The translations under genes were made by a program, and so were the position numbers. Of a stretch of 64,000 nucleotides of DNA, positions 12,904 to 28,788 are shown one piece after another; positions within the stretch are counted from its first letter, which is position 1, and each line of letters starts with the position of its first letter. The DNA comes from a bacterium. GTDB taxonomy: Bacteria > Myxococcota_A > Bradymonadia > UBA7976 > UBA1532. The stretch is from positions 1 through 64,000 of the forward strand of contig JAUHYW010000060.1 in NCBI GenBank assembly GCA_030426085.1. Reading direction: 5' to 3'. A model generated the notes under the pieces. The model ran no database searches, was not told the origin of the DNA, and saw only the letters and a list, made by a program, of their open reading frames with translations.

Positions 12904-13003
12904 CTGATGCCCCGGTGCGCCGCTTCGGCGCAACTGCGCTCTTTCGGTGCACCACGATCGGGCATCGGGGCGCCGGCTGCGCCGCTCTGGCGGGCGCTGC
13001 GGG

Positions 13004-13018
13004 TGGCACGGCGGTTGC
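13004..13018 (+). promoter_or_regulatory. Sigma-54 (RpoN) -24/-12 promoter element TGGCAC-N5-TTGC
   Basis: tggcacggcggttgc matches consensus GG-N10-GC exactly. It lies ~35 nt upstream of the MVP-like ATG, with GGAGG RBS at 13042..13046. Confidence 0.45.
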
Positions 13019-13052
13019 GAATCGGGGTTGGCACCACCGAGGAGGCATTCCG

Positions 13053-15413
13053 ATGGACAACCGCCGTGAACGGGAGCTGGTGCTGGCCCCCAACGAATAC
13101 GCCTACGTGCTCGACACCACCAAGGGCCACATCAACTGCTATGTGGGCCCCAACAAGACCAGCCTGGCCCAGACCGACCAGCCGGTGGTGTTCAACAGCG
13201 GCTCGAAGCGCTTCGAGCCGGCGGTGCTCGAGGACGCGGTGCGCCTCTTCGCCACCGCCCCGGCCAACTGGTACATCGCGCTGAAGAACCCCGCCCGCGA
13301 CCGGGTGCACCCCAACCCGGGGGTGGCCAGCGTGGCCCCCGAGCTGCTCGTCGGGCTCAAGCACAACGTGCCGGGGCCGGCGGCGTTCGCCCTGTGGCCG
13401 GGGCAGATGGCGCGGGTGATCGAGGGCCACCGGCTGCGGGCCGACGAGTACCTCTACGTGCGCATCTACGACGCCGGGGCCGCCGCCGAGGCCGGCTGGC
13501 GGGCGCTGGGGCTGGCCGACGACCACGCCGAGCAGCCGCCCCGGTTCGCGGTGGGCCAGGGCTACGTGATCAAGGGCACCGACACCCGGTTCTACATCCC
13601 GCCGACCGGGGTCGAGGTCGTGCCCGAGGACGGGGGGAACTTCGTGCGGGCGGCGGTGCGGCTCGAGCGGCTGGAGTACTGCGTGCTGGTGGGCCACGAC
13701 GGCCAGCGGCGCACCATCCGGGGCGAGGCGATCGTCTTCCCCGGGCCCGACGAGCGGTTCGTGGTGCGCGAGGGGCGGCGCAAGTTCGAGGCGATCGAGC
13801 TCAGCGAGACCACCGGGCTGCACGTCAAGGTCACCGCGCCCTACACCGAGGCCGACGGCACCGCGCGCCGGGAGGGCGAGGAGCTGTTCATCACCGGCAG
13901 CGGGGTCATCTACTTCCCCCGCGACGCGCACGCGATCATCCGCCAGGGGGGCCGGGCGCTGCACCAGGCGGTGGCCATCCCCCGGGGCGAGGGGCGCTAC
14001 GTGCTGAGCCGGCACACCGGCGAGGTGGCGCTCAAGCGGGGGCCGGCGATGTTCCTGCCCGACCCCCGCCACGAGGTGATCATCCGCCGGGTGCTCGACG
14101 ACCGGGAGTGCGCGCTGCTCTTCCCGGGCAACCCCGACGCGCGGGCCTTCGGCCGGGCGGACGGGCGGCGGCCGGCGGCCGAGCCGAAGCCGGGGCGCAA
14201 GAGCCGGGGCGAGGGCGGGTCGGGCGCGCCGCTGGCGGTGGTCCGGCCGGCGTTCGAAGGGCCCCGCACGATCACCCTCGACACCCGCTACGCGGGCGCG
14301 GTGCGGGTCGACGTGCGGGCCGGCTTCGCGGTGCAGGTGGTCGACCAGAGCGGCGCCCGGCGGGTCGAGCAGGGGCCGACGGCGCTGTTGCTGGGCTACG
14401 ACGAGATGCTCCAGCCGCTGACGCTGTCCACCGGCACCCCCAAGTCCGACGCCCGCCGGCTGGAGACCGCCTACTTGCAGACCACCGGCAACAAGGTCGG
14501 CGACCGGCTGCTGCTGGTGACCCGGGATCAGGTCCGGGCCGAGCTGACCCTGGCCTATCGGGTCGACTTCGACGGCCCGCCCGAGCGGTGGTTCGCCGTC
14601 GAGGACTACGTCAAGCTGCTGTGCGACCACGCCGGCTCGATGATCAAGGCCCGGGCCCGCAAGCTGGACGTCGTGGCGTTGCAGGGCGACCTGACCCCGG
14701 TGGTGCGGGATCTCATCCTGGGGCCCCGGGGCGAGGGCGGCGAGCGGCCGGGGCTGGGGTTCTCCGAGAACGGCATGCGGGTCTACGACGTGGAGGTGCT
14801 CGCGCTCGAGATCGTCGACGAGGCGGTGCGGGCGCTGCTCGACGAGGCTCAGCTCGACGCGATGCAGCAGGCGCTGGCGGTGGGCGCCCGGGAGGCCGAG
14901 GTGGCCCGCCGACAGCGGCTGGAGGACGCCGAGCGGGCGCTGGATCGGGCGCTGGACGAGACCGCCGCGCTGCGGGCGGGCATCGCCGCCGAGCAGGCCC
15001 GCCGGGGCCATACCGAGGCCACCGCCGAGCGGGAGCGGCGGCTGGCCCTGGCCCGGATGGAGGCCGAGCAGGACCGGCTCGAGCTGGAGGCCGAGCTGGC
15101 GCTGCGGGCCCGGCGGCTGGCGGCAGAGGAGGCCGAGGACGCCGCCCGGCTCGAGAGCCGGCGGGCGAAGCAGGCGCTCGACCTGGAGGCGCTCGCCGCC
15201 CGGGTCGAGGGCGCGGTGCGGGCGGCGCAGGCGTTCGACCCCCACGTCGTGCACGCGGTCAACCGCCTCGGCGACCAGCAACTCGCCGCCGCCCTGGCCG
15301 AGAACTTCGGCGAGCTGGCGGCGGTGGAGGGCCGGGGGCTCTTGGAGACCGCCCGCAAGTTCCTCGACTTCGTGCCCGCCAGCCTCATGCCCCAGCTCCG
15401 CGAGCCGGGCTGA
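13053..15413 (+). CDS. Major vault protein (MVP) homolog: MVP repeat domains + SPFH-like shoulder + coiled-coil cap-helix
   Basis: N-terminus LAPNEYAYVLDTTKGHINCYVGPNKTSL... parallels MVP repeat 1 ([26 protein letters not shown]). Shoulder region LAYRVDFD...FAVEDYVKLLCDHAGSMIKARARKLDVVAL parallels MVP LAYNWHFE...[27 protein letters not shown]. The C-terminal ~150 aa is an Ala/Arg/Glu-rich coiled coil like the vault cap-helix. Confidence 0.75.
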   Translation: MDNRRERELVLAPNEYAYVLDTTKGHINCYVGPNKTSLAQTDQPVVFNSGSKRFEPAVLEDAVRLFATAPANWYIALKNPARDRVHPNPGVASVAPELLVGLKHNVPGPAAFALWPGQMARVIEGHRLRADEYLYVRIYDAGAAAEAGWRALGLADDHAEQPPRFAVGQGYVIKGTDTRFYIPPTGVEVVPEDGGNFVRAAVRLERLEYCVLVGHDGQRRTIRGEAIVFPGPDERFVVREGRRKFEAIELSETTGLHVKVTAPYTEADGTARREGEELFITGSGVIYFPRDAHAIIRQGGRALHQAVAIPRGEGRYVLSRHTGEVALKRGPAMFLPDPRHEVIIRRVLDDRECALLFPGNPDARAFGRADGRRPAAEPKPGRKSRGEGGSGAPLAVVRPAFEGPRTITLDTRYAGAVRVDVRAGFAVQVVDQSGARRVEQGPTALLLGYDEMLQPLTLSTGTPKSDARRLETAYLQTTGNKVGDRLLLVTRDQVRAELTLAYRVDFDGPPERWFAVEDYVKLLCDHAGSMIKARARKLDVVALQGDLTPVVRDLILGPRGEGGERPGLGFSENGMRVYDVEVLALEIVDEAVRALLDEAQLDAMQQALAVGAREAEVARRQRLEDAERALDRALDETAALRAGIAAEQARRGHTEATAERERRLALARMEAEQDRLELEAELALRARRLAAEEAEDAARLESRRAKQALDLEALAARVEGAVRAAQAFDPHVVHAVNRLGDQQLAAALAENFGELAAVEGRGLLETARKFLDFVPASLMPQLREPG

Positions 15414-15596
15414 TCGGCCCGGCGGGGCCCGACACCCGCAAATGCTCTTCGGTTGACGGGACAAGTGGTGTCCGCCGCCGGTCATCCGTTACATTCCTCA
15501 TATGCTGGCTCGGGCGCGGCGGCTGCCCGTCCGGCCGGAGGATGGAGCGCAAGGGGAGTGATGCAGGGCGGAGAGCATGCCCGCGGCGGCAGGAAG

Positions 15597-18500
15597 ATGG
15601 CGGCGCTGGCGCTGGCGATGGTCGGCCTGGCGCTGGGCTGCGGGGATCCCGAGGCCCTGGACCCGCCGCTCGAGCCCGACGCGGCGCTGTGCGGTTCGGG
15701 CTTCGACACGGTCGGCGATGAGTGCGTCGACATCGACGAGTGCGCGGCCGACCCCGGCCCGTGCGACGCGCGCACCACCTGCATCAACCTGCGCGGCGGC
15801 TTCTCGTGCGGCGCGTGCCCCGAGGGCTACGTGGGCGACGGGCTCGTCGACGGCGAGGGGTGCACCCTCGACTGCCCGCCGGGGCAGGCCGACGGCGGCG
15901 GCGGGCGGTGCGCGCCCCGGGGCACCTGCAATCCGGGCTACGAGCCGGGCCCCGACGGCGGCTGCGCGCCGCTGCAATGCCCGCCCGATCAGCACTTCGA
16001 CGGGGCCGAGGGCTGCGTGCCGCTCGGCGAGTGCGCCCCGGGGTTCGCGCCGGACGACGCGGGGGACTGCGTGGCCGGGCCGTGCCCCGCCGGTGAGCAC
16101 GACGACGGGACCGGGGCCTGCGCGCCGGAGGGCGAGTGCGCCGAGGGCTACCGGCTCGACGCGGCCGGCGACTGCGCGCCGCTGCCCGAGTGCCCCGAGG
16201 GCGAGCACCCGATCGGCGACGGGTCGTGCGGCCCCGCGGGCACCTGCGTCGATGGCTACGCGCTCGACGCCCAGGGCGACTGCCGCCCGCTGAGCTGCCC
16301 CGAGGACGACCCCCGCGAGCCGGACGACACCCCCGCCGAGGCCGACCCGCTGACCCCCGACGAGGCGGTGATCGGCGTCGCCTGCCCCGATGATCCGGAT
16401 CACTTCGCGCTGGACCCCGGCGCCCGCTGCCGGGTGGTGGCGGCCCTCACGGCGGTGGGATCCGAGCCGCTCGAGGCCGCGCTGACCCTGGTCGACGAGG
16501 GCGGGCGGCTGCTGACCGACGCCCCGGGGGGCGAGGCCCGCCTCGAGGTGGCCGGGCCGCTCTTCGCGGCGGTCGCGGGGGCCGGGCTGTACCGATTGCA
16601 GGTGCGATTCGAGGGCCACGATGGGGGCGACGGGGCCTGCGTCGAGCTCGGCGTGTGCTCTCCGGGCTACGCCGAGGACGACGCCGGGGCCTGCACGCGG
16701 TGCGCGGCCGGCTTCCGTGATGGGGGCGGCGGGGCCTGCGTGCCGCTGGGGGCCTGCGCGCCGGGCTTCGCGCTCGACCTGGACGGGTCGTGCCGGCAGA
16801 CGGCCGCGTGCCCGCCCGGCGCCCGGGACGACGGGGCCGGCGACTGCGCGCCCGACGGCGACCCCTGCGCCCCGGGCTTCGGCGACGACGGGGCCGGCGG
16901 CTGCGCCCCGCCGGGGGTCTGCGCGGCGGGCTTCGTGCTCGACGTGCTCGACCGCTGCCGGATGGCGACCGCGTGCCCCGTCGGCGAGCGCGACACCGGG
17001 GACGGCGCGTGCGGCGGGCCGTGCGCGTCGGGCTATCACGGCGGGGGCGGCGAGCCCGGGATCTGCCTGCCGGCGGGCGACTGCGCGCCGGGCTGGGTCG
17101 AGCGGGGGGACGGGACCTGCGACCGGGCCTGCCTCGGCGGCCTGGAGCGGGCCGGCGCGGTCTGTGTCGAGGACTTCACCTGCCCGGCGGACGACGGGAC
17201 CGAGGTGGACGAGCCGCGGGAGCTGAGCCCGGGGGCCAGCAAGTACGGGGTCGTGTGCCCGGGGGACGCCGACCGCTTCCGCCTCGCGCCGCCCACCGGC
17301 TGCGGGGTGCGCTTCATCTTGCGCTTCGACCCCGCCGAGGGGCCGCTGGTGCTCGAGGTCGGGGCCGAGGCGGCGCCGGCGACCGGCCGGGACGCGCCCG
17401 AGGGGCAGCGGCTGGTCGTCGAGGGGGTCGTCGGGCCGCTGGCGGTGCGGGTCCGGGGGGCCGACGACGAGGCCGGGGCCCGCTACGCGCTGCGGGTCGA
17501 CCTCGACGGCCACGACGGGGGCGACGGGACCTGCCAGCCGCTGGGGGCCTGCGCGGTGGGCTACGCGCTCGCGGCGGACGACAGCGGGGCCTGTGATCGC
17601 TGCGCGCCGGGCTTCGAGGACGGGGACGGCGGCGCGCCGGGCGTCGTCTGCGTGCCCGAAGGGGACTGCGCCGAGGGCTTCCACGACGGCGGCGACGGCG
17701 TCTGCGTGCCGGACGATCGCTGCGCGCCGGGCTTCGCGGACGGGGACGGCGACCGCCCGGGCATCGTCTGCGTGCCCGAGGGCACCTGCGCGGCGGGCTT
17801 CCACGACGGGGGCGACGGGGGCTGCGTGCCGGTCGACGCCTGCGCCGAGGGCTTCCACGACGGCGACGGCGCGGGCCCGGGCACCGTCTGCGTGCCCGAG
17901 GGGGCGTGCAGCGCGGGCTTCCACGACGGCGGCGACGGGGGCTGCGTGGCCCGGGGCGACTGCGCCGAGGGCTTCCACGACGGCGACGGCGCGGGGCCCG
18001 GCGACCGCTGCCTGCCGACGGGCGCGTGCCTGCGCGGGTGGCACGACGGGGGCGACGGGGTGTGCGTCGAGCGGGGGCTGTGCCGCGAGGGCTACCTCGA
18101 CCGGGGCGACGGGGTGTGCGTCGAGAACCTCTTGTTCGGCACCGTCTGCGCGCCGGGCCGGGGCTTCGCCTTCGAAGACGGCGGGGTCTGCGTCTGCAAC
18201 GAGGGCACCCGCGACGGGGGCGACGGGCGCTGCGTGCCGGAGGGCGCCTGCTCGCCCGGCTTCCGCCCCGACGCGCCGGAGACCGACGATCAGGGCGAGG
18301 CGCCGGCCTGCGCCCCGGTCGGGATCTGCGCCGCGGGGCACCACTCGACGCCGTGGGGGGCGTGCCGACCGACGGCGGCCTGCCCCGCGGGCGAGCGGGA
18401 CGACGGCATCGGGGCCTGCGTGCCCGAGGTGGCCGGCTGCGCCGACGGGTTCGCCGTCCGGGGCGAGGTGTGCGCCGCGCCGCCGGCCTGCGGGCCGGGG

Positions 18501-19736
18501 CACCACGACGCCGGCGACGGGACCTGCGCCCCGATCGGCGGCTGCGCCGACGGATTCCGACCGTCGGCGGCGGGCTGCGTGCCCCAGGGCCCGTGCAGCC
18601 CGCCCTCCGACTTCGCCGCCGGGCCCCCGATCGAGGTGGGGCCGCCGGTGGCCGGGGTGGCCTGCGGGCCGGACGTCTGGCGCTTCGACACCCCCCGGGG
18701 CTGCGGGGTCGAGGCCCGGCTGGTGGCCGATCCGGCGGCCGGCGCGGTCGACCTCGAGCTGTTCGACGCCGACGAGGCCCTGGTCGCGCGGGTCGAGGCG
18801 CTCGACGGCACCGCCCGCCTGTGGCTGCCGCCGGGCGAGCCCCGCCAGCTCCACCTGCGGGTGACGCCCTACCCCCCCGGCGCGGTCGATCCGGTGCCCT
18901 ATCGGCTGGCGCTCGTGGCCGATCCGCTGCGCTGCATGGCGGTCTGCCCGTTCGACCAGCGCCCCGACGGCGGCGGGCGCTGCGTGGACTTCGAGGCCGA
19001 CTGCGCCCCCGGCTGGCACGAGGGCGGGGACGGGGCCTGCGTGCCGCTCGATCGCTGCACCCCGGGCTTCCACGACGGGGGCGACGGGGTCTGCGTGCCG
19101 TTCGACGTCTGCCGCCCGGGGTATCGACTCACCGCCGAGCTGACCTGCGCCGCGGTCACCGCCGACTGTCCGCCGGGCGAGCGGGACAACGGCGGCGGTG
19201 TCTGCGCCCTCACCTGCGCCGTCGGGCAGGGCTACCACGAGGGCGGCGACGGCACCTGCGTGGCGACGCCCTACTGCGTGGCGGGCTACGCCGACGACGG
19301 CGGCGGGCTGTGCGTCGCCCGGACGCCGGAGGCCGAGTGCGCCCCGGACGTCTTCGAGGCCCGGCCCGACGGCGACGGCCTGTGCCTGCTGGTGCGCTGC
19401 ACCGACCTGGACGACGACACCGACGCGCTCGCCGAGGCGCTGCCGCTCGACGTGCGCCCCGGCGAGCCGACCGTGGTCTACGGGTCGCTGTGCCTGGCCG
19501 ACCCCGGCGACTGGTATCGGGTGGGCGGGGGCCACCTGCGGGCCCGCTTGCGCTTCGACCACGCCGACGGCGACCTGCGGCTGCGCTTCCTCGACGCCAA
19601 CGGGCTCGAGCTCGCCGCGGCCGACAGCGCCGATGACGACGAGGTGCTCGGGCTGCCCGGGGCCCCGGCCGAGGTCATCGTCGAGGTCACCGGGGAGAGC
19701 AGCGTCGGCTATCGGCTCGATCTGGTCCGGGATTGA
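15597..19736 (+). CDS. Giant Cys-rich repeat lipoprotein: lipobox, cbEGF-like domain, >40 Myxococcus-type Cys-rich repeats, four PPC-like beta-sandwich domains
   Basis: MAALALAMVGLALGC is a lipobox. CVDIDECAADPGPCDARTTCINLRGGFSCGACPEGY is a Ca-binding EGF. Repeated CxPGFxDGGDGxCVPxGxC units follow. There are four ~100-aa Cys-poor modules (e.g. GSLCLADPGDWYRVGGGHLRARLRFDHADGDLRLRFLDANG) with the D-x-D-x-Y/W-R PPC-like signature. Confidence 0.8.
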   Translation: MAALALAMVGLALGCGDPEALDPPLEPDAALCGSGFDTVGDECVDIDECAADPGPCDARTTCINLRGGFSCGACPEGYVGDGLVDGEGCTLDCPPGQADGGGGRCAPRGTCNPGYEPGPDGGCAPLQCPPDQHFDGAEGCVPLGECAPGFAPDDAGDCVAGPCPAGEHDDGTGACAPEGECAEGYRLDAAGDCAPLPECPEGEHPIGDGSCGPAGTCVDGYALDAQGDCRPLSCPEDDPREPDDTPAEADPLTPDEAVIGVACPDDPDHFALDPGARCRVVAALTAVGSEPLEAALTLVDEGGRLLTDAPGGEARLEVAGPLFAAVAGAGLYRLQVRFEGHDGGDGACVELGVCSPGYAEDDAGACTRCAAGFRDGGGGACVPLGACAPGFALDLDGSCRQTAACPPGARDDGAGDCAPDGDPCAPGFGDDGAGGCAPPGVCAAGFVLDVLDRCRMATACPVGERDTGDGACGGPCASGYHGGGGEPGICLPAGDCAPGWVERGDGTCDRACLGGLERAGAVCVEDFTCPADDGTEVDEPRELSPGASKYGVVCPGDADRFRLAPPTGCGVRFILRFDPAEGPLVLEVGAEAAPATGRDAPEGQRLVVEGVVGPLAVRVRGADDEAGARYALRVDLDGHDGGDGTCQPLGACAVGYALAADDSGACDRCAPGFEDGDGGAPGVVCVPEGDCAEGFHDGGDGVCVPDDRCAPGFADGDGDRPGIVCVPEGTCAAGFHDGGDGGCVPVDACAEGFHDGDGAGPGTVCVPEGACSAGFHDGGDGGCVARGDCAEGFHDGDGAGPGDRCLPTGACLRGWHDGGDGVCVERGLCREGYLDRGDGVCVENLLFGTVCAPGRGFAFEDGGVCVCNEGTRDGGDGRCVPEGACSPGFRPDAPETDDQGEAPACAPVGICAAGHHSTPWGACRPTAACPAGERDDGIGACVPEVAGCADGFAVRGEVCAAPPACGPGHHDAGDGTCAPIGGCADGFRPSAAGCVPQGPCSPPSDFAAGPPIEVGPPVAGVACGPDVWRFDTPRGCGVEARLVADPAAGAVDLELFDADEALVARVEALDGTARLWLPPGEPRQLHLRVTPYPPGAVDPVPYRLALVADPLRCMAVCPFDQRPDGGGRCVDFEADCAPGWHEGGDGACVPLDRCTPGFHDGGDGVCVPFDVCRPGYRLTAELTCAAVTADCPPGERDNGGGVCALTCAVGQGYHEGGDGTCVATPYCVAGYADDGGGLCVARTPEAECAPDVFEARPDGDGLCLLVRCTDLDDDTDALAEALPLDVRPGEPTVVYGSLCLADPGDWYRVGGGHLRARLRFDHADGDLRLRFLDANGLELAAADSADDDEVLGLPGAPAEVIVEVTGESSVGYRLDLVRD

Positions 19737-20636
19737 TCAGCGGGCGGTGACCGGGCGGGACGCCTCGGGATCGCGGGCGGCGAGGTGCTCCGGGCGGGGG
19801 CCGGGCGCGGCGAAGGGGGCCCCCAGCCGGTTGTCGGTGCGGTTGTAGACGAAGAACGCCGTGCTGCGGCCGAACGGGCTGATGTTGCCGTGCGACCCGT
19901 GGATCAAGAGCCCGTCGAAGAGCACCACCGTGCCCACCTCGCCCTCGCAGTACTCGACGCCGCCCTCCTCGATCGCCGCCCGCAGCGACGCCGTCGGGAT
20001 CGCGCCGAAGCCGATGCGGGGGTCGCTGAGGCTGCGGGTCCAGTTCTCGGGCGGGGTCGGCCCCGGGGTCTGCAACAGGCTGCGGTGGCTGCCGGGCACC
20101 ACCATCAGCGCGCCGTTCCACGCCCGGCTGGGCTCGAGCATGATCAGGGCCGAGCATACCGTGGGCCGGGGCATGCCGTCCTCGGCGTGCCACGCCTCGA
20201 AGTCCTGGTGCCAGTAGAAGCCCTGCCCGACGCCCGGCGGCTGGAAGTTGATCCGGCTCTGGTGGATGTAGACCGCCCCGCCCAGGAGCTGCTCGGCGGC
20301 GCCCAGCAGCCCCGGGTCGCGGTGCAGCTCGCCCAGCTCGGGGTGGCGGTGCGGGCTCCACAGGGTGCGCAGGGCGTCCTGGTCGTGCTCGAAGGTGGTG
20401 CGGATGTGGCCCGGCGCCTCGCCGGCCTCGGCCGCGGCCCGCATCCGCTGCAGCTCGGCGGCCACCGCCGCGCAGCGGGCCTGATCGATCAGATCGGGCA
20501 GGATCAAGAAGCCCCGCTCGACATAGCGCCGGCGCTGCGCCGCCGAGAGCGGGCCGTCGGCGGCCGGCGCGATGGGCGTCTGGCGGGGCACGGCCCCCAG
20601 GGCGCCGGTCAGGCGGGTGGGATAAGTCGCGCGCAT
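19737..20636 (-). CDS. ectD: Ectoine hydroxylase (EctD-like, Fe/2-oxoglutarate dioxygenase of the PhyH family)
   Basis: 299 aa. GFYWHQDFEAWHAEDGMP matches the EctD signature FxWHSDFETWHxEDG(M/L)P almost perfectly. C-terminal GSHGNISPF carries the second iron-ligand His. Confidence 0.8.
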   Translation of the reverse strand: MRATYPTRLTGALGAVPRQTPIAPAADGPLSAAQRRRYVERGFLILPDLIDQARCAAVAAELQRMRAAAEAGEAPGHIRTTFEHDQDALRTLWSPHRHPELGELHRDPGLLGAAEQLLGGAVYIHQSRINFQPPGVGQGFYWHQDFEAWHAEDGMPRPTVCSALIMLEPSRAWNGALMVVPGSHRSLLQTPGPTPPENWTRSLSDPRIGFGAIPTASLRAAIEEGGVEYCEGEVGTVVLFDGLLIHGSHGNISPFGRSTAFFVYNRTDNRLGAPFAAPGPRPEHLAARDPEASRPVTAR

Positions 20637-20638
20637 GA

Positions 20639-21682
20639 TCACTCCGATCGGGCGGCTCGCTCCACCGCGGCGTCGAGCACCGTCAGCGCCTGCTCGGCCC
20701 GGGGGCCGGCCATCTCGACGAACAGGTCGCGCACCGGGGCCGCCATCGCCCGGAACGCCGCCCGCTCGTCGGCGTCGAGGGTGAGCACCTCGAGCTCCGG
20801 CTTGCGCTCCAGCATGCGCTCGAGCCGCTCCTGGTTGAACCGCCGCTGGATGGCGAACGCCTCGTCGTGCAGCTCGGCGATCACCCCGTCGAGCATGCGC
20901 CGGTCGCCCTCCGACAGTCGATCGTAGAACGCCTGGTTGGTCATCACGCTGGTGACGAAGTGGGCGTGCCCCGGCAGCACGAGGTGGTCGGTGACCTCGT
21001 AGAAGCTCATCTCCTCGATGGCGAAGACCGGGTTGACCTGGGCGTCGATCATGTTGAGCTGCAGCGCGCTGTAGACCTCGGCGTAGGGCAGCGGCGTGGG
21101 GTCGGCCCCGTAGGCGTCGTAGGCGGCGAGCAGCAGCGGCGAGGTCATCACCCGCATCTTGAGCCCGGCGAAGTCCGCCGGCCGGCGCACCGGGCCCCGG
21201 GTGGTCCACACCATCAGCCCCTCGGAGACGAAGTCGAGCAGCCGGAAGTCCTTCTCGGCGTAGAGCGCGTCGAAGAACGCCCGCAGCTCGGGGTCGGCGA
21301 GGGCCCGGCTGTTGGTCGCCTCGTCGTCGTGCAGGGTGTAGTGCAGCAGGAAGACCTGCAGCTCGGGGATGATCTTGCCCAGGTGCCCCGGCGAGGCGGT
21401 GGCGAACTCCAGGGTGCCGTTGTGCAGCAGCTCGGTGATCTGGTCGCTGGTGCCCAGGGTGCCGTAGGGGTAGACCTTGACGTCGATCCGCCCCCCGCTG
21501 CGGGCCTCGATGGCCTCGGCGAAGGCCTGGGCGTAGGCGTCCTGCACGCTGCCCCGGGTCTCCTCGATGGCGAAGCGCCACACGATGGGGCCGTCGTCGC
21601 GGGCGCAGCCGGCGAGCCACGCCGCGCAGGCCATCAGGCAGGCCAGCGGCAGGGCCAGGCGGGGGGCCGTACGAGATGCCAT
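20639..21682 (-). CDS. dctP: TRAP transporter substrate-binding protein (DctP family), lipoprotein
   Basis: MASRTAPRLALPLACLMACAAWLAGC lipobox, then a DctP-type fold (WRFAIEET..., MRVMTSPLL). Confidence 0.85.
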   Translation of the reverse strand: MASRTAPRLALPLACLMACAAWLAGCARDDGPIVWRFAIEETRGSVQDAYAQAFAEAIEARSGGRIDVKVYPYGTLGTSDQITELLHNGTLEFATASPGHLGKIIPELQVFLLHYTLHDDEATNSRALADPELRAFFDALYAEKDFRLLDFVSEGLMVWTTRGPVRRPADFAGLKMRVMTSPLLLAAYDAYGADPTPLPYAEVYSALQLNMIDAQVNPVFAIEEMSFYEVTDHLVLPGHAHFVTSVMTNQAFYDRLSEGDRRMLDGVIAELHDEAFAIQRRFNQERLERMLERKPELEVLTLDADERAAFRAMAAPVRDLFVEMAGPRAEQALTVLDAAVERAARSE

Positions 21683-21687
21683 GGCGT

Positions 21688-22974
21688 TCACTCCGCGAAG
21701 GCCAGATCGCGCAGCAGCAGCGCGATGTCGGGGAAGGCGATGATCAGCACCGAGGACAGCGCGAGCAAGGCGATGAACGGCGGCGTGCCCCGGATGACCT
21801 CGAGGTAGGGCTTTCGGAACACCGCGATGGCGGTGAAGATGTCGCAGCCGAAGGGCGGGGTCGCCGAGCCGATGGCCACCTGGAGGGTCACCACCGTGCC
21901 GACGAGCACCGGGTCGATGCCCGCCTGGACCGCCACCGGGTGGAAGATCGGGGCCAGGATCAGGATCACCACGATCGGGTCGACGAACATGCAGCCGACG
22001 AAGAACGCCAGCGCGATGGTCGCCATCAGGACCGGGTAGCTGCTGTCGGCGCCGATGCCCAGCCCGCTGATGAGCGCGGTGGGCAGATCGGCGAACGAGA
22101 TGACCCACGAGAACGCCGCCCCGGCGCCGACGAGCACGAAGACCACCCCGGTGACGAGGCCGGTGTCCCGGGCGATGGCCGGCAGGTCGCTCAGCTTCAA
22201 CTGGCGGTAGATCCCGACCTCGAGGATGGCCGCGTACAGCACCGAGACCGCCGCCGCCTCGGTGGGGCTGAAGAAGCCGGCGTAGATGCCCCCGATGATG
22301 ATCACCGGGAAGCCCATCGGCAGCGAGGCCCGGCCGAGGGCCTTCATCCGGCCCCGCCAGTCGACCCGCGCCTCGGACTCGATGCCCAGCCGCACCGCGG
22401 CGGCGTAGCAGTAGCCGCAGAACAGCACGAGGATGAGCAGCCCCGGGCCGATGCCGGCGATGAACAGCTCGCCGATCGAGGTGCCCGTGACCACCCCGTA
22501 GACGATCATGCCGATGCTCGGCGGGATGAGCAGCGCGATGTCGCTGGCGTTGATGATCAGGGCGGTGGCGAAGCTGTCGGGGTAGCCCCGGGCGACCATG
22601 CGCGGGCGCAGCGGCCCGCCGATGGCCACCACCGTCGCCTGGGTCGAGCCGGAGAGCGCGCCGAACAGGGTGCAGGCCACCGCGCTGGTGATCGGCAGCC
22701 CGCCCCGCAGGTGGCCCATGAAGGCCCCGATGAGGTCCAGCAGGCGGTCGGCGGCCTGGCCCCGGGTCATGATCTCGGCGGCCAGGATGAACATCGGCAC
22801 CGCGATGAGGGCCGCCGGCTGCACCCCCCCGATCATCTGCTGCACCAGCACCGCCGGGTCGACCCCGGGGAACCAGCCGAGCAGCGCGACGAGCGCGGCG
22901 AGCAGCAGGGGCACCAGCATCGGCACCCCCAGCAGCAGGAAGACCAGCATGACGCCCAGCAGCATCCAGCTCAT
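21688..22974 (-). CDS. dctM: TRAP transporter large permease (DctM)
   Basis: 428 aa polytopic, canonical DctM sequence features. Confidence 0.9.
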   Translation of the reverse strand: MSWMLLGVMLVFLLLGVPMLVPLLLAALVALLGWFPGVDPAVLVQQMIGGVQPAALIAVPMFILAAEIMTRGQAADRLLDLIGAFMGHLRGGLPITSAVACTLFGALSGSTQATVVAIGGPLRPRMVARGYPDSFATALIINASDIALLIPPSIGMIVYGVVTGTSIGELFIAGIGPGLLILVLFCGYCYAAAVRLGIESEARVDWRGRMKALGRASLPMGFPVIIIGGIYAGFFSPTEAAAVSVLYAAILEVGIYRQLKLSDLPAIARDTGLVTGVVFVLVGAGAAFSWVISFADLPTALISGLGIGADSSYPVLMATIALAFFVGCMFVDPIVVILILAPIFHPVAVQAGIDPVLVGTVVTLQVAIGSATPPFGCDIFTAIAVFRKPYLEVIRGTPPFIALLALSSVLIIAFPDIALLLRDLAFAE

Positions 22975-22984
22975 CGGCGCCTCC

Positions 22985-23536
22985 TCAGATGCCCGGCTGC
23001 TCGGCGACCGCCGCCTGCCCGGCGGGGGTGTCGGCCGAGAGCCAGATGCCGGGGGTGGTGGCGTTGCGGGCGATGGTCAGCACGCATTGCAGGCCGGCGA
23101 GGGCCAGCCCCACCGGGGCCGCCAGGTAGCCGACCCACAGCGGCACCGAGAGCACCGGCGAGCGGGTGCCGAGGGTGTAGACCGTGTCCAGGTAGCCCAC
23201 TCCGAAGGCGGCGAGCGCGAAGCACAGCCCGCCGGTCACCGCCGCGCCGAAGATGGTCAGCCCCTTGCGGGTGCGGGCGCCGCACAGGTCGTAGAGCGCG
23301 GTCATGCGGATGTGCCGCCCCCGGCTGGCCCCGTGGCTCAGGCCGGCGAACGTCACGAAGAGGATGGCGAAGCGGCTGAGCTCTTCGGTGGCGGCGATGC
23401 TCACCCCGAAGACGATCCGGGCCAGCACGTTGCCGATGGTGGCCAGGGCGATGAGCAGGATGCCCCCCGCCAGCAGCGCGACCTCGACGTGGCGCAGGCC
23501 GGCGGCGAGCCGATCGAGCGCGGTCTTCACGGGCAT
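22985..23536 (-). CDS. dctQ: TRAP transporter small permease (DctQ)
   Basis: 183 aa, 4 TM, immediately upstream of dctM on the same strand. Confidence 0.8.
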   Translation of the reverse strand: MPVKTALDRLAAGLRHVEVALLAGGILLIALATIGNVLARIVFGVSIAATEELSRFAILFVTFAGLSHGASRGRHIRMTALYDLCGARTRKGLTIFGAAVTGGLCFALAAFGVGYLDTVYTLGTRSPVLSVPLWVGYLAAPVGLALAGLQCVLTIARNATTPGIWLSADTPAGQAAVAEQPGI

Positions 23537-23561
23537 CTCCCCGCGGGCCCGGCGGCCCGCG

Positions 23562-23963
23562 TCAGTCGTCGTCGGCCCTCGCGGGCGGTGCGGGGTAGGC
23601 CCCGTCGGGGCCGTGCACCTCGCGCCCGGTCACCGGCGGGTTGAAGACACACACCATGCGCATCCGCTCGTCGGCGAACAGCGTGTGGTGGTCGTGGGCG
23701 TCGAGCGCGTAGAGCGTGCCCGGCGCGATGGCGTGCCGCTCGCCGGTGGCGTGGTCTTCGATCCAGCCCCGGCCCTCGACGCAGTAGACCGCCTCGAGGT
23801 GGTGCTTGTAGTGCATCTCGAGCGGCGCGCCGGGGTGGATGAGCGTGTCGTGCACCGAGAAGCCCATCCCGGCGTCGGCCAGCAGCAGCCGGCGGCTGGT
23901 CCACTGCTTCGCCGAGACCTCGCGGTCGGTGCCGACGATGTCGTCGAGGCGGACGAGCTTCAC
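23562..23963 (-). CDS. ectC: L-ectoine synthase
   Basis: 133 aa cupin. [19 protein letters not shown] and [13 protein letters not shown] align to EctC metal/substrate motifs. Confidence 0.9.
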
Positions 23964-23964
23964 C

Positions 23965-25299
23965 TCAGGCCCCCACCCGGGCGGCGATGCGGGCCGTCAC
24001 CTCGGGCATCTCCCGGGGCGCCTCGGCCGGCGGGCGATCGAAGACCGCGTCCACCGCCGCCTCGAGCCGGTCGAGGCCCTCGGCGAGCACCCCGTCGTCG
24101 ATGGTCAGCGGGGGCAGCAGCTTGACGACCTCGCCCTCGGGGCCGGCGGTCTCGATGATCAGGCCCCGCTCGAAGGCAGCCCGGCTGATGGCCGACGCCC
24201 GCGCCGGGCCGGTCACCAGCCCCCGGATGAGGCCCCGCCCCCGCACCGGGCAGCCGTGGCGGGCGCCCATCGCTTCGAAGCGCCCGGCGGCCAGCGCGGC
24301 CCGGCGCTGCACGTCGGCGGTCAGCGCCCCGTCGCTCCAGAAGCGGTCGAGCGCCGCCGCGGCGGTGACGCAGGCCGGGTTGAAGCCGCGGAAGGTGCCG
24401 TTGTGCTCGCCGGGCGACCACTGGTCCAGCTCGGAGCGCATCAGCACCGCCGAGAAGGGCAGGCCGTAGCCCGACAGCGACTTCGACAGGCAGACGATGT
24501 CCGGGCGCAGGCCGGCCGGCTCGAAGCTGAAGAACGGCCCGGTGCGCCCGCAGCCGACCTGGATGTCGTCGACGATCAGGAGCGCGCCGATGCGCCGGGC
24601 GAAGGCGGCGAGGCGCTTCAGCCAGGGGTCGGAGGCCACGTTGACCCCGCCCTCGGCCTGCACCGTCTCGAGGATGAACGCCGCCGGCACGTCGACCCCG
24701 CTGCTGGGGTCGCCGAGCAACCGCTCGAGGTGGTCGATGGTGTCGCCCTCGCCGAGGTAGCCGGCGAAGGGCATCCGGGCGACGTGGTGCAGCGGCACCC
24801 CGGCCCCGGCCCGCTTGCTGGCGTTGCCGGTCAGGGCCAGCGAGCCGAGGGTCATGCCGTGGAAGGCGTTGGTGAACGCCAGCACCGTCGGGCGCCCGGT
24901 GACCTTGCGGGCCAGCTTGACCGCCGCCTCGACCGCGTTGGTGCCGGTGGGGCCGGGCAGCATGACCTTGTACGGCAGGTCCCGGGGCAGCAGCACCCGC
25001 CGCTCGAAGGTCTCGAGGAACCGGATGCGGGCCGCGGTGGCCATGTCGAGGCTGTGGGTCACCCCGTCGGCGGTCAGGTACTCGAGCAGGGCCGCCTTGA
25101 GGTGGGGCTCGTTGTGCCCGTAGTTCAGCGCGCCGGCCCCGGCGAAGAAGTCGATGTAGCGCCGCCCGCGGGCGTCGAAGAGGTGGGGGCCGACGGCCTT
25201 GGTGAACACGGTCGGGAAGCTGCGCACGTAGCTGCGCACCTCGGACTCGAGGCGGCGCACGGGGGCCAGATCGGTCGGGGCGTGGTCGAGCAGGGTCAT
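23965..25299 (-). CDS. ectB: Diaminobutyrate--2-oxoglutarate transaminase
   Basis: 444 aa class-III aminotransferase. Full-length EctB-like (…[14 protein letters not shown]…[10 protein letters not shown]…). Confidence 0.9.
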
Positions 25300-25811
25300 G
25301 GCTGACTCCGGAGGGGTCCGATGCGGAAGCGATCCTCGCGCTCGTGCCCGTCGGCGAACAGCTCGGCGGGCAGGTCGGGCTCGATCGCCAGCCGGGCGTC
25401 GTGCCGGCGGGCGAAGCCTTCGAACAGGCGGCGGGAGGCGGTGTTGGAGGGGGTGACGGTGGCCTCGAGGACCGAGGCCCCCTCGGCCCCGGTCACGAAC
25501 GCGTCGAGCAGCCGGCCGGCGAGCCCCTGCCCCCGGGCGGCGGGGGAGACGGCCACCTGCCACACGAACGCCGCCTCGGGGCGGGTCGGCGGGCGGTAGC
25601 CCATCACGAAGCCCAGCAGCGGGCCGGCGGCGCCCCGGGGGCCCTCGGCCACCCAGCACGTCTCGGCGAAGTCGCGGCACATGATCAGGTAGAGATAGGC
25701 CGAGTTGCGGTCGAGCCCGCCACCCTCGCGCACGAGGGCCTCGATGCGGGGCCCGTCGGCGAGGGTCGCCCGACGCAGGCCGATGGGCGTGGGGTCGGGA
25801 TCAGGCGGCAT
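25296..25811 (-). CDS. ectA: L-2,4-diaminobutyrate acetyltransferase
   Basis: 171 aa GNAT (QVAVSPAARGQGLAGRLL). ATGA overlap with ectB. Confidence 0.85.
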   Translation of the reverse strand: MPPDPDPTPIGLRRATLADGPRIEALVREGGGLDRNSAYLYLIMCRDFAETCWVAEGPRGAAGPLLGFVMGYRPPTRPEAAFVWQVAVSPAARGQGLAGRLLDAFVTGAEGASVLEATVTPSNTASRRLFEGFARRHDARLAIEPDLPAELFADGHEREDRFRIGPLRSQP

Positions 25812-27252
25812 CGGCCGGCTCCCGGTCGTCGCCCTCCGCCGCCGTGAGCGCCCGCCAGGTGGGGCCGAGGTGGGGCGCGTCGTCGCTGCCCCGCAGCAGG
25901 TGGGCGTGCAGGAAGCGCTCGATGCCGTCGGCGTGCTCGGCGTCCACCACCAGCGACAGGCTGATGTCGTCGGGGGTGTGGGTCGCCAGCAGCACGTCGG
26001 GCCCCTCGGTGAGCAGCGACCCGGCCCGGCGCACCATGTCGGCGAAGACCGCCCGGCCGACCAGGCTCACCGAGGCGACGTCCCAGTTCACCGTCGGGGT
26101 GCAGAAGCGCTCCAGGTCGCGCAGCAGCACCGGCACCTCGTCCCGGGCGCCGGGGAAGGCGCTGGGGTCGACGGTGGCCCGGATCTCACCCGGCGAGCTC
26201 GAGATCAGATCCATCGACAGCCCGTGGCGCCGGAAGCAGGCCGACACCTGGGCCATGAAGCCCACCGGCTGCCACCGCGGGTCGCGCTGCATCGAGATCA
26301 GGTGCAGGTTGCGCCGGGCGGTGACCGACTTGATGCCCTCGCCGACGACCTCGCCGTCGATGATCGTGCCCGGCACCTCGGGGCGGTCGGTCCAGCCCAG
26401 GTGCAGCGGGATGCCGCACGCCCGCAGCGGGCGCAGGCAGCGGGGGTGCAGCGCCCGGGCCCCGAGCGCGGCCAGCGAGGCGGCCTCGGGGTAGCTCAGC
26501 CGATGCACCAGGCGGGCGAGGGGGTAGCGCCCGGGGTGGGCGGTGAAGAGGCCTGGCACGTCGGACCAGATCTCCAGCCGGCGGGCCGAGAGGCGGGTCG
26601 CGAGGTAGGCCGCCGAGGTGTCCGAGCCGCCCCGGCCGAGCAGCACCGTGTGGCCCTCGTCGTCCCGGGCGGTGAAGCCCTGGGTGATCACGACCGGCCG
26701 GCCCCGCTCGACCAGCCGGTGGCCGACGAGCGGGTCGGGCCCCGCCGCGCAGGTGCCCGCCAGGAAGCGGCTGGCCGCCGAGCTGCCCTCGGGCGGCGGC
26801 TCGGCCTTGAGCAGCGACCGGGCGTCGACCCAGGCGGTCGGCAGCTCGTTGTCGCCGAGGTAGGCCGAGCCCAGCCGGGTCGACATGCGCTCACCGAGCG
26901 CGAGCAGCGCCGCCCGCTCGGCCGGCTCGACGACGGCCGGATCGGCCGCCAGCCGCTCGAGCTGCTCGAAGTCGGTGCCCAGCAGGCGATCGGCGTCCAC
27001 CCCCAGATCGCGGCCCAGGGCCCGATGCTGGGCCCGCAGCGCCTCGACGAGCCGGCCCCGCTCGTCGGCCGGGGGGGCCTCGGCGAGCCGCTCGAGGCGG
27101 TTGGTGACCCCCTCGAGGGCCGAGCAGACCACCAGCGGGCGCTCCCCGGCGGCGAGGCGATCGGAGACGACCCGGGCGATGCATCGCCACCGGCGCGCGG
27201 TCGAGACGCTGCTGCCACCGAACTTGAGAACGACCCACGGTGTGGTTGGCAT
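25801..27252 (-). CDS. ask: Aspartate kinase, ectoine-pathway-specialised (Ask_Ect type)
   Basis: MPTTPWVVLKFGGSSV kinase N-terminus, C-terminal ACT domains. Overlaps ectA by 11 nt. The longer track ORF (to 27387) would read through the promoter, so the ATG at 27252 is preferred. Confidence 0.85.
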   Translation of the reverse strand: MPTTPWVVLKFGGSSVSTARRWRCIARVVSDRLAAGERPLVVCSALEGVTNRLERLAEAPPADERGRLVEALRAQHRALGRDLGVDADRLLGTDFEQLERLAADPAVVEPAERAALLALGERMSTRLGSAYLGDNELPTAWVDARSLLKAEPPPEGSSAASRFLAGTCAAGPDPLVGHRLVERGRPVVITQGFTARDDEGHTVLLGRGGSDTSAAYLATRLSARRLEIWSDVPGLFTAHPGRYPLARLVHRLSYPEAASLAALGARALHPRCLRPLRACGIPLHLGWTDRPEVPGTIIDGEVVGEGIKSVTARRNLHLISMQRDPRWQPVGFMAQVSACFRRHGLSMDLISSSPGEIRATVDPSAFPGARDEVPVLLRDLERFCTPTVNWDVASVSLVGRAVFADMVRRAGSLLTEGPDVLLATHTPDDISLSLVVDAEHADGIERFLHAHLLRGSDDAPHLGPTWRALTAAEGDDREPADAA

Positions 27253-27358
27253 CCTGTCTGTGCTCCCTGTGCATGTCATCACCCGACCCGGCGAAGGCAT
27301 CGCCCGAGCGGCTGTCACCGTTATTACGGAGACGGGCTCCGAGCTGATTCGGGCGCGA

Positions 27359-27387
27359 ATATTAAGGGAACTAAGTTTTTCTGGCAA
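27359..27387 (-). promoter_or_regulatory. Sigma-70-type promoter (TTGCCA -N17- TAATAT) for the ask-ect-TRAP-ectD operon
   Basis: Minus strand reads ttgcca gaaaaacttagttccct taatat. It lies within the only AT-rich stretch upstream of ask. Confidence 0.45.
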
Positions 27388-27435
27388 CCCCCTGTCCCCG
27401 ATCGATTTTCGGGGCCGGATTTCGGGGCCGCCCGA

Positions 27436-28788
27436 TCAGGGGTTCGGCGGCAGCGCCCCGACGCCGGCCCCGCTGTCGACCACCCGGCACTCGGCGGCCA
27501 GGGTGAACGGGGTGTGCACGAAGGCCATCTGGCACATCTCGTCGTCGGCGGTGAAGCCCCAGTTGACCGTGCGATCGGTCGGGTTGCGGTAGTGGCAGCG
27601 GAACTCGAAGCCGGTGCCGGTGGCGATGGGCAGCGGCGGGTCGAGCTGCATCAGCTCGGGGGCGTGCCAGTCGTCGTTGGCGTAGAGCAGCTCGCCGGTG
27701 CGCTCGCCGTCGAAGCGGTAGATCTCGATGCGCTCGGCCAGCTCGTGGGTGTGGCTCGACAAGAGGATCATCTCGATGTCCCGGGTGAGCACGCAGCGGG
27801 TCCACTCGACCCAGCCCTCGACGCCCGGCGCGAGGTCGATGTCGACGTCGCGCACCGCGCTGCCCCAGATCGAGTCTTCGACGTCGGCGGGATCCATCGT
27901 GTAGGCGTTGATCCGGGACCACACCGGCACCTCGACCGGGGTCGGGTTGACGTAGTGGATCTCGACCATGACCCGCAGCGCGCCGGGCAGGTTGGCCGCC
28001 ACGCCTTCGGGCAGCTCGAGCACCTCCTCCTCGTTCTGGGTGGCGAAGATGAAGATGCCCTCCTCCATCATCGAGGGGTAGGTCTCGTAGAGTTCGTCGC
28101 AGTCGTACATGCCCGGCTCGAGATCGACCCCCGCCAGCAGCCCCAGGGCCATCACGTCCATGTGGTGCACCCCCGGGCTCTGCAAGGCGTGCACCCGGTT
28201 GACCGGGGTGAACGGGCCCGGCGGGGTCGGCAGATCGGCCACCGCGCACTTCCAGATCTCGCCGCCCGCCGGGGCCACCGTGTCGATGCCCATCTGGAAG
28301 CCCTCCGCCAGCGGCGGCGGGGGCAGCTCGTCCGGAGAGCGGGTGCCGGTCACCGTCGCCCCGCCGTCGGGGGCGAGGCCCGGGTCGAAGTCGCCGCCCC
28401 GCAGCGCGCCGGCCGCGATCCAATCCCGCACCCGCCCGATCTGGGCCGACGAGAGCGCGAAGCCCGGCGGCATCTGGCGCACGTCGCCCACCGCCGCCGA
28501 GAGCACCTGCACCAGCAGGCTGCCGTCGGGGTCGCCGGGCATCACCCGGATCCCGTCGGCCAGGGTCGCCGGCTGCTCGACGAGGTGGGCGTAGGCCGCG
28601 TCGGCGGTGGACAGGTCGAGCCCCGCCTTGGGGTTGGGGCCGGCGTGGCACGCCTCGAAGGCGCACGAGACGGCGAACACCTCGGCGTGCACCTGCCCCA
28701 GCCCGAGGCCGGCGGGGGCCGGGTCTTCGTCGGCGTCGCAGCCGAGCGCGAGCAGACAGAGCGATCCGCAGATGACGAGACGGCGCAT
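27436..28788 (-). CDS. Lipoprotein: N-terminal cytochrome-like (PSCyt-like) domain + PHM/DBH-type copper monooxygenase-like domains
   Basis: MRRLVICGSLCLLALGC is a lipobox. VFAVSCAFEACHAGPNPKAGLDLS is Cys/His-containing. SPGVHHMDVM (HH) and SSHTHELAER (HxH) followed by EMCQMAF (Met) resemble the CuH/CuM sites of peptidylglycine monooxygenase-type enzymes. Confidence 0.55.
   Translation of the reverse strand: MRRLVICGSLCLLALGCDADEDPAPAGLGLGQVHAEVFAVSCAFEACHAGPNPKAGLDLSTADAAYAHLVEQPATLADGIRVMPGDPDGSLLVQVLSAAVGDVRQMPPGFALSSAQIGRVRDWIAAGALRGGDFDPGLAPDGGATVTGTRSPDELPPPPLAEGFQMGIDTVAPAGGEIWKCAVADLPTPPGPFTPVNRVHALQSPGVHHMDVMALGLLAGVDLEPGMYDCDELYETYPSMMEEGIFIFATQNEEEVLELPEGVAANLPGALRVMVEIHYVNPTPVEVPVWSRINAYTMDPADVEDSIWGSAVRDVDIDLAPGVEGWVEWTRCVLTRDIEMILLSSHTHELAERIEIYRFDGERTGELLYANDDWHAPELMQLDPPLPIATGTGFEFRCHYRNPTDRTVNWGFTADDEMCQMAFVHTPFTLAAECRVVDSGAGVGALPPNP

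Follow-up and report, generated by a model that had tools for sequence, protein, structure and literature searches.

The window analysed here is a stretch of 64,000 nucleotides of bacterial DNA (contig JAUHYW010000060.1, positions 1 to 64,000), and its subject is a block of eight genes on the minus strand which combines the synthesis of ectoine with a transporter of the TRAP (tripartite ATP-independent periplasmic) type and an EctD-like dioxygenase. An earlier note on this DNA had read the order ask-ectA-ectB-ectC-dctQ-dctM-dctP-ectD on one strand, with near-adjacent or overlapping boundaries, and all eight genes were indeed found in this order between positions 27252 and 19737. Based on NCBIfam and Pfam models the genes were assigned as follows.

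27252-25801, minus strand: ask, aspartokinase, 483 amino acids; TIGR00657 238 bits (cutoff 208.7)
25811-25296, minus strand: ectA, diaminobutyrate acetyltransferase, 171 amino acids; TIGR02406 148.3 bits (cutoff 120.6)
25299-23965, minus strand: ectB, diaminobutyrate-2-oxoglutarate transaminase, 444 amino acids; TIGR02407 590.9 bits (cutoff 552.2)
23963-23562, minus strand: ectC, ectoine synthase, 133 amino acids; NF009806 186.3 bits (cutoff 128), PF06339 185 bits
23536-22985, minus strand: dctQ, small TRAP membrane subunit, 183 amino acids; PF04290 89 bits
22974-21688, minus strand: dctM, large TRAP membrane subunit, 428 amino acids; TIGR00786 342 bits (cutoff 268), PF06808
21682-20639, minus strand: dctP, TRAP solute-binding subunit of the lipoprotein type, 347 amino acids; PF03480
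20636-19737, minus strand: ectD-like gene, Fe(II)/2-oxoglutarate dioxygenase, 299 amino acids; PhyH, TIGR02408 234.1 bits, below the cutoff (336.5)

EctA, EctB and EctC score above their curated cutoffs and are encoded next to each other on one strand, as in an ectABC operon. The TRAP system is complete with its P, Q and M components, and the carboxylate-binding arginine is present in DctP. From ask to the ectD-like gene the junctions measure -11, -4, +1, +25, +10, +5 and +2 nucleotides, where the overlap of ask with ectA amounts to 11 nucleotides and that of ectA with ectB is of the ATGA type; the start of dctM has a GGAGG 6 nucleotides upstream. The GC content at third codon positions is 0.94-0.99 in all eight genes, in a window of about 74% GC.

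This arrangement, on a GC-rich chromosome which is probably myxobacterial as judged from GC content, best MAG (metagenome-assembled genome) hits and gene content, is likely to constitute one osmostress operon, in which ectoine synthesis, modification by an enzyme of the EctD family and import by an ectoine-type TRAP system are combined. A single, salt-responsive promoter upstream of ask would drive the eight close-packed genes. The aspartokinase would supply aspartyl phosphate and so boost the precursor, EctB, EctA and EctC would make ectoine, and the dioxygenase encoded by the last gene would modify it, most likely by hydroxylation. DctQMP would form a high-affinity, binding-protein-dependent importer coupled to sodium or protons, with DctP anchored to a lipid, and would take ectoine-type solutes from the periplasm, stemming from the cell's own leakage as well as from release by its neighbours. 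A marine or halotolerant lifestyle, as proposed in the earlier note, is plausible.

Relation to known ectoine gene clusters

Transporter genes often accompany ect clusters, and genes for TRAP systems of the Tea/Ueh type adjoin 11 of 23 planctomycetal ect clusters, with binding sites comparable to those of TeaA and UehA (PMC13342039, 2026). A comparable layout is found in Myxococcota. Two of the closest canonical EctD relatives of the window protein, P0124 from a Myxococcota metagenome-assembled genome (MAG) and P0127, are 43-44% identical to it and are encoded in six-gene loci of the order AA_kinase-ectA-ectB-ectC-SSS-ectD (L093 and L095). The hydroxyectoine genes of Enhygromyxa salina SWB005 also form a six-gene operon (PMC6163206), and this species is a proven hydroxyectoine producer (PMC6163206, PMC5924519). 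As judged from the operons of P0124 and P0127, the Myxococcota relatives normally have a transporter gene in the interval from ectC to ectD. The window is best described as this ask-ectABC-transporter-ectD template with a TRAP system filling the slot of the SSS symporter, so that only the type of transporter is swapped. Kinase gene first, transporter between ectC and ectD and tight packing on one strand are features which the window has in common with L093, L095 and E. salina SWB005 and SWB007. The relatives differ in their transporter, a single EctI-like SSS symporter, in the intact EctD signature WHSDFETWH and in a kinase of about 400 amino acids with 28% identity to that of the window; E. 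salina in addition has ectR (PMC5924519).

An aspartokinase gene in first position is also known from E. salina SWB007, where the order is ect_ask-ectABCD with ectR and the strain accumulates hydroxyectoine (PMC5924519). The window protein best matches the kinase half of NF006515 and the Pfam family AA_kinase. It is 41-45% identical to the ect-adjacent aspartokinases of two other loci (L039 and L062) and about 28-30% identical to the shorter kinases (about 400 amino acids) of other Myxococcota ect clusters. The ask product probably acts as Ask_Ect, feeding precursor to ectoine synthesis.

For a wider comparison 80 orthologous TRAP loci were available from a scan with a profile of the subfamily, one genome per species, at 46-67% identity. 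In none of these 80 genome loci was the exact gene order of the window found. The order from ectC through dctQMP to the ectD-like gene recurs in an independent metagenomic contig (L081), which reads ectB'-ectC-dctQ-dctM-dctP-(ectD-like)-globin-Rrf2 and whose products are 88% (DctM), 80% (DctP), 80% (DctQ), 74% (EctC) and 63% (EctD-like protein) identical to those of the window. Within the subfamily the order Q-M-P is the commonest (33 of the 80 loci) and the TeaABC-like order P-Q-M occurs once. The view that the gene order of the window is atypical finds little support: ask in first position is published for E. salina, the template of the Myxococcota relatives already places a transporter gene after ectC and before ectD, and Q-M-P is the commonest order among the orthologues. 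At L081:4598-5441 the globin and the Rrf2-family regulator gene follow the ectD-like gene on the same strand, a place taken in the window by a converging EGF-repeat gene.

The ectoine transporters TeaABC of Halomonas elongata and UehABC of Ruegeria pomeroyi are tripartite (P, Q, M) like the system of the window, and DctP has the same fold as TeaA and UehA and, of the TeaA site, retains the anchor residues Arg, Asn and Glu as well as two Phe. Their gene order is P-Q-M whereas it is Q-M-P in the window, where DctP is moreover a predicted lipoprotein. TeaABC stands alone and UehABC is found with catabolic genes; the TRAP system of the window lies inside a biosynthetic operon and has no TeaD/USP gene, none having been found among the window open reading frames (ORFs) scanned with Pfam. 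TeaABC serves osmoprotective uptake and recapture (PMC5924519), a role which the window system may share.

The planctomycetal ect clusters with TRAP genes (group I in PMC13342039) have the same TRAP subfamily and the same pairing of synthesis and import as the window. In the Gimesia/Planctomycetaceae loci L022, L032, L036 and L042 DctP is 52-56% identical to the window protein and ectABC(D)-dctQMP lie on one strand. In contrast to the window, the planctomycetal clusters lack ask_ect and usually have ectR (PMC13342039), and several of the loci carry a canonical EctD. Wherever an EctD-type gene is present in the planctomycetal loci examined, the TRAP genes either follow it or are oriented divergently to it, and never lie between ectC and ectD.

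An ect cluster with a co-encoded importer is already known; here the myxobacterial slot that separates ectC from ectD is filled by a TRAP system. As the principle of recapture is published for TeaABC and for ect clusters of other phyla, what the locus chiefly adds is an example with TRAP genes in an operon of the myxobacterial type. Synthesis and a dedicated importer in one operon fit a continuous loss and recapture of compatible solutes. The more unusual part is the non-canonical hydroxylase with its rare HQD-type relatives.

The EctD-like dioxygenase and the HQD-type group

A signature of 17 residues, F-x-W-H-S-D-F-E-T-W-H-x-E-D-G-M/L-P, is strictly conserved in EctD proteins and regarded as diagnostic (PMC2871039, PMC3979721, PMC5924519). 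The peptide quoted in the earlier note as carrier of this signature, GFYWHQDFEAWHAEDGMP, is present at residues 138-156 of the window protein. The signature as such is broken, which the earlier note had not remarked on: in FYWHQDFEAWHAEDGMP two invariant residues are replaced, Ser by Gln and Thr by Ala (S145Q and T149A). This leaves 13 matches at the 15 fixed positions, and the protein stays about 100 bits under the TIGR02408 cutoff. On this model canonical EctDs score 355-406 bits, the nearest neighbours with intact signature 316-332 bits and P0122 249 bits. P0122 is the one close relative, 63% identical to the window protein, and the L081 gene shares its length, motif and downstream spacing. 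Among the 120 best homologues 118 have WHSDFETWH; WHQDFEAWH occurs only in the window protein and P0122. The protein is an HQD-type EctD-like dioxygenase and not a canonical EctD.

Its catalytic residues are intact. This holds for the iron triad H143, D145 and H246 and for the 2-oxoglutarate ligands F140, S248 and R257, which correspond to Phe141, Ser247 and Arg256 in EctD numbering. Contacts to 5-hydroxyectoine in the structure 4Q5O of S. alaskensis EctD are made by Gln127, His144, Thr149, Trp150, Arg280 and Leu284 (PMC6890836); five of the six are kept, Thr149 being replaced by Ala. When the 69 columns with at least 95% conservation in canonical EctDs are considered, seven are changed in both the window protein and P0122: F93W, S145Q, T149A, N171S/A, Q207P, N242L and N258T/S.

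A structural model of the protein (pLDDT 91.5) superimposes on the EctD structures 4MHU, 4Q5O and 3EMR with template modelling (TM) scores of 0.84-0.90. EctD is both the closest solved protein and the closest fold, followed by fold by proline hydroxylase H11 and GriE. Fold, iron ligands and 2-oxoglutarate ligands are common to the window protein and the EctDs of S. alaskensis (4Q5O) and V. salexigens (3EMR); in 147 of 200 bootstraps it falls outside the canonical EctDs, on a branch together with the fused HQD-type proteins described below. Proline hydroxylase H11 (7DZZ, trans-3/4) and leucine hydroxylase GriE (5NCH) have a PhyH-type fold like the window protein (TMq 0.71-0.79), and H11 also has the H-Q-D iron motif. 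Both are shorter, match the window protein with only 135 bits (H11) and 98 bits (GriE) as compared to 191 bits for EctD, and in contrast to it are not encoded in ect clusters. H11 has in addition no aligned counterpart of the C-terminal region with Arg280 and Leu284.

A scan of metagenomes for DNA patterns encoding WHQDFEAWH gave two contigs. Their proteins of 265 amino acids are nearest to H11 and 31-33% identical to the window protein, and were rejected as relatives. A metagenome contig of 67% GC (L096:292-3235) contains two tandem PhyH-family genes beside a cytochrome P450 and a probable methyltransferase; one of the pair carries WHQDFEAWH, and a near-identical protein of L097 has proline hydroxylase H11 as its best match. 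The genes resemble a secondary-metabolite cluster and are unrelated to ectoine.

A scan of the collected loci for signature variants revealed six ect clusters with an EctD-like domain carrying the motif WHQDFEQWH. In all six this domain makes up the C-terminal half of one ORF which directly follows ectC in a cluster adjoining the present TRAP subfamily, with both domains in one frame and no intervening stop.

L041:5456-7330, plus strand: EutA-like/EctD-like fusion ORF
L043:5367-7253, plus strand: EutA-like/EctD-like fusion ORF
L068:5230-7284, plus strand: EutA-like/EctD-like fusion ORF
L024:2378-4663: EutA-like/EctD-like fusion ORF
L045:5374-8079: EutA-like/EctD-like fusion ORF
L060:5074-7377: EutA-like/EctD-like fusion ORF

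The EutA-like domain was detected in all six by tblastn. In the three ORFs scanned with NCBIfam the N-terminal part of about 250 residues matches models of the EutA/arylmalonate-decarboxylase family (TIGR02990 110-130 bits, cutoff 318), and both halves remain below the equivalog cutoffs. EutA is a proposed racemase which inverts the 5-hydroxyl of hydroxyectoine in catabolism (PMC5924519). An unfused form of the pairing is found on a metagenomic contig of 147 kb (L098:6134-10990), where MarR-ectA-ectB-ectC is followed by a separate EutA-like Amdase/Asp_Glu_race protein of 275 amino acids and by the HQD-type EctD-like protein P0247; asd is found upstream in divergent orientation. L099 has an HQD-type gene next to a TRAP operon that is divergent to it.

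The window protein and P0122 share with the six fused domains F93W, S145Q and changes at T149, N171, Q207 and N258, six columns which are invariant in 46 canonical EctDs. In neighbour-joining trees the HQD-type group is monophyletic in 173 of 200 bootstraps; as these are distance trees and not likelihood trees and could be affected by long-branch attraction, it is chiefly the substitutions in common that support the clade. The group is rare: with a profile of eight sequences about 10 HQD-type cluster representatives were found among 5.8 billion proteins, at 295-579 bits, the best match with canonical signature following at 294 bits. All members with a readable neighbourhood sit at an ect cluster or at the present TRAP subfamily. 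A literature search yielded no description of the HQD-type group or of the EutA-like fusion.

Most likely, as far as its sequence can tell, the window enzyme hydroxylates ectoine. It could alternatively have been neofunctionalised, so as to form a product other than (4S,5S)-5-hydroxyectoine, with different regio- or stereochemistry, or to act on another cyclic amino-acid-like substrate, and the end product of the operon would then be a non-standard solute. This is somewhat unlikely; it is favoured by the gap between 234 bits and the range of the canonical EctDs, by the motif WHQDFEAWH, confined to the window protein and P0122 among the 120 best homologues, by the six otherwise invariant columns changed in all eight HQD-type members, by the monophyly of the group, by the occurrence of H-Q-D in proline hydroxylase H11, and by the EutA-like fusion or adjacency inside ect clusters, which suggests a modified chemistry. 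The preserved iron triad and 2-oxoglutarate ligands speak against it, as do the product contacts, where four side chains out of five are unchanged (Q127, W150, R280 and L284), the EctDs as nearest solved proteins and folds, the readable neighbourhoods, which are natural for an ectoine-modifying enzyme, and the window lineage itself, which has no EutA-like partner. A more far-reaching proposal, which we regard as unlikely, is that the window protein and P0122, together with the forms that are fused to a EutA-like protein or lie next to one, constitute an enzyme class of their own making a different ectoine derivative, such as an epimeric or differently positioned hydroxyectoine. The operon of the window would then make and re-import a non-standard solute, and the altered pocket of DctP described below might accommodate it.

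The distinction matters because researchers use the strict EctD signature to tell producers of 5-hydroxyectoine from other organisms, and the HQD branch breaks this signature and keeps the catalytic residues. Should the product of the HQD-type enzymes be ordinary 5-hydroxyectoine, both the NCBIfam cutoff and the rule based on the signature are too strict. Should it be another ectoine derivative, it would be a new extremolyte, and the enzymes a new biocatalyst.

Candidate transcription signals and the proposed single operon

A scan of positions 19000-28000 for promoter-like and terminator-like sites and a folding analysis of the junctions gave two features.

27387-27359, minus strand: sigma-70-like promoter candidate TTGCCA-17-TAATAT (pattern scan), a putative promoter
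23561-23542, minus strand: GC-rich 8-bp hairpin in the 25-nucleotide gap between ectC and dctQ, -23.7 kcal/mol

The promoter candidate, listed twice in overlapping registers, is the only promoter-like site in the scanned region, where shuffled sequences give a mean of 0.1. It lies in the intergenic region upstream of ask (27253-27435, 183 nucleotides, 61% GC). An internal terminator had been named beforehand as the finding that would break up the operon; no terminator-like site was detected in 19000-28000, the shuffles averaging 1.3. Rfam gave no match in this region at E <= 1 and the 5' untranslated region folds no better than shuffled sequence, and a riboswitch or leader RNA was rejected on these grounds.

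The eight genes might nevertheless form several transcription units, with promoters of their own for the TRAP genes and/or the ectD-like gene or with attenuation at the ectC-dctQ hairpin, which would place biosynthesis and uptake under separate regulation. In favour of this, the widest gap of the operon is the one containing the hairpin, and myxobacterial promoters can differ from the sigma-70 consensus and could be overlooked by the scan. As a terminator or attenuator the hairpin had to be rejected: it has no U tract, its z value is -1.65 with 10 of 200 shuffles (5%) folding equally well, and the orthologous junction of L081 has no such hairpin. It is probably non-functional. With gaps of 1-25 nucleotides or overlaps throughout, no promoter-like or terminator-like site within the operon, and a gene order that is kept in L081, separate units are quite improbable and co-transcription of the eight genes from the site upstream of ask is the preferred reading.

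The TRAP transporter and its probable ligand

Among the solved structures in the PDB the best match of DctP is 4PFI, a TRAP binding protein from Marinobacter (294 bits), followed by UehA (3FXB, 238 bits) and TeaA (3GYY and 2VPN, 218-219 bits). The remaining solved TRAP binding proteins reach at most 122 bits (4P47). The AlphaFold model of DctP (pLDDT 94) has TM scores of 0.97 to 4PFI and 0.91-0.94 to TeaA and UehA, with a root mean square deviation of about 2 Å. Sequence identity is 46% to 4PFI, 40% to UehA and 38% to TeaA, the latter two being 61% identical to each other. By sequence as well as by fold UehA and TeaA are the characterised binding proteins nearest to DctP, which belongs to a 4PFI-like sister subfamily of these ectoine binders. 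The lipobox of DctP is LAGC with Cys26, which is invariant in an alignment of 31 sequences.

The ectoine site of TeaA, which we take to consist of Glu9, Phe66, Arg144, Trp167, Asn184, Phe187, Trp188 and Phe209, was located in the TeaA sequence, where all eight numbers land on matching residue types. DctP keeps five of the eight residues (E41, R177, N217, F220 and F242). The other three are the following.

TeaA position 66: Phe in TeaA, His in 4PFI, His100 in the window DctP
TeaA position 167: Trp in TeaA, Phe in 4PFI, Tyr200 in the window DctP
TeaA position 188: Trp in TeaA, Ala in 4PFI, Ala221 in the window DctP

His and Tyr at the first two of these positions are found in 117 of 120 homologues and Ala at the third in all 120. 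R177, aligned with Arg144 of TeaA, is invariant in the 120 homologues; TRAP binding proteins generally have such a conserved Arg as their carboxylate filter (PMC4646407). The pocket pattern EHRYNFAF as a whole is present in 73 of the 80 orthologues and in 19 of 20 loci with an EctD-type gene, be it canonical or HQD-type. The earlier note had suggested a comparison with binding-site residues of TeaA and UehA; at the TeaA site the Arg, Asn and Glu anchors are identical and three aromatic residues are replaced. With these three changes the exact ligand preference of DctP may differ.

The linkage of the subfamily to ectoine genes was examined by searching the eight window proteins against the 80 loci, with ect genes counted within 10 kb. 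They occur at 35 of the 80. In 11 loci ectC-dctQ-dctM-dctP run in one direction; these include genomes of Polyangiales and Sandaracinaceae (L012, L029 and L056), Gimesia and other Planctomycetaceae (L031, L032, L035, L036, L040 and L047) and an Acidobacteria genome (L039). The order ectABCD-dctQMP is found in three of the 80, and the other ect-linked loci are divergent or convergent. Some orthologues form stand-alone TRAP operons, like TeaABC.

The position of DctP in the neighbourhood of TeaA and UehA, taken together with the ect genes at 35 loci, makes import of ectoine-type solutes by this TRAP system, in uptake or recapture, the best-supported reading. To this extent the built-in recapture of ectoine proposed in the earlier note stands. 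Its premise, by which the genes of ectoine TRAP systems lie away from those of biosynthesis, is contradicted by the planctomycetal clusters (PMC13342039) and by the 11 loci with ectABC-dctQMP on one strand. That the system would instead import another carboxylate, for instance a precursor, or an amino acid or 2-oxo acid serving as co-substrate, is very improbable: the identity to TeaA and UehA of only 38-40%, the three replaced aromatic pocket residues and the lack of ect linkage in more than half of the orthologous loci would fit it, but they are outweighed by the gap of 116 bits from UehA to 4P47, the next solved protein, with TeaA at 218 bits, by the identical pocket in binding proteins beside ect clusters with an EctD-type gene, by an orphan orthologue amid BCCT, OpuAC, MarR and MscS genes, and by planctomycetal members whose ectoine-binding sites were judged comparable (PMC13342039).

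A number of observations weigh against the interpretation as one operon for ectoine synthesis, modification and import. The EctD-like protein misses the equivalog cutoff of TIGR02408 (234.1 as compared to 336.5 bits) as well as the published strict signature, and lacks Thr149, a product contact in S. alaskensis EctD (PMC6890836). An internal promoter may exist within the operon. Three of the eight pocket positions of TeaA differ in DctP (Phe66 to His100, Trp167 to Tyr200 and Trp188 to Ala221), and a literature search for the ligand of 4PFI, the closest solved structure, gave none. No ect gene is near 45 of the 80 orthologous TRAP loci, and TeaABC itself is encoded apart from the ect genes. Finally, ectR, asd and mscS are absent from the window ORFs scanned with Pfam. 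A EutA-like gene was also not found in the window by tblastn; other eut or doe genes were not searched for directly.

Some loci of the transporter subfamily show further peculiarities. In L091 (7199-16251) and L092 an orphan orthologue of DctP, 64% identical, has no adjoining dctQ or dctM; it is surrounded by BCCT and OpuAC genes on one side and by MFS, MarR and MscS-type channel genes on the other, an osmolyte-handling neighbourhood. The gene directly after dctP in a Sandaracinaceae MAG (L056:11038-12288) encodes a second EctB-like aminotransferase with 54% identity, and ectA-ectB-ectC lie upstream of dctQMP with about 1.2 kb between ectC and dctQ. Behind the dctQMP genes of a Myxococcales MAG (L017:11548-12492) come a truncated EctD-like ORF of 155 amino acids and then a solitary ectC. 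This EctD-like ORF has lost an iron-binding His (WRADFEVWH) and looks like a decaying ectD.

The genes flanking the operon in the window are unrelated to the ectoine locus. They comprise a Cu2_monoox_C-like gene upstream on the same strand, a sulfatase gene and the EGF-repeat gene converging on the ectD-like gene, and farther away genes for IleRS, citrate synthases, PntAB and a P450. The EGF-repeat gene (15453-19736, plus strand) encodes a protein of 1427 amino acids with an extreme content of Cys, Gly and Asp, with EGF_CA and EGF_3 matches and many repeats of the type CxPxGxCxxGFxDGGDGxCVP, in a region of 78-80% GC, and runs towards the end of the ect operon. Positions 12900-15413 of the plus strand hold a stop-to-stop ORF of 837 amino acids with matches to two domain types of the major vault protein, the shoulder (MVP_shoulder, 56 bits) and the repeat (Vault_3, 28.5 bits, slightly below the gathering score of 28.8); a homologue of vault protein is unusual in a bacterial genome. 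Two adjoining divergent genes of the citrate synthase family lie at 36159-38517, and the one on the plus strand (37315-38517) encodes an N-terminal HTH_17 DNA-binding domain in front of its citrate synthase domain.

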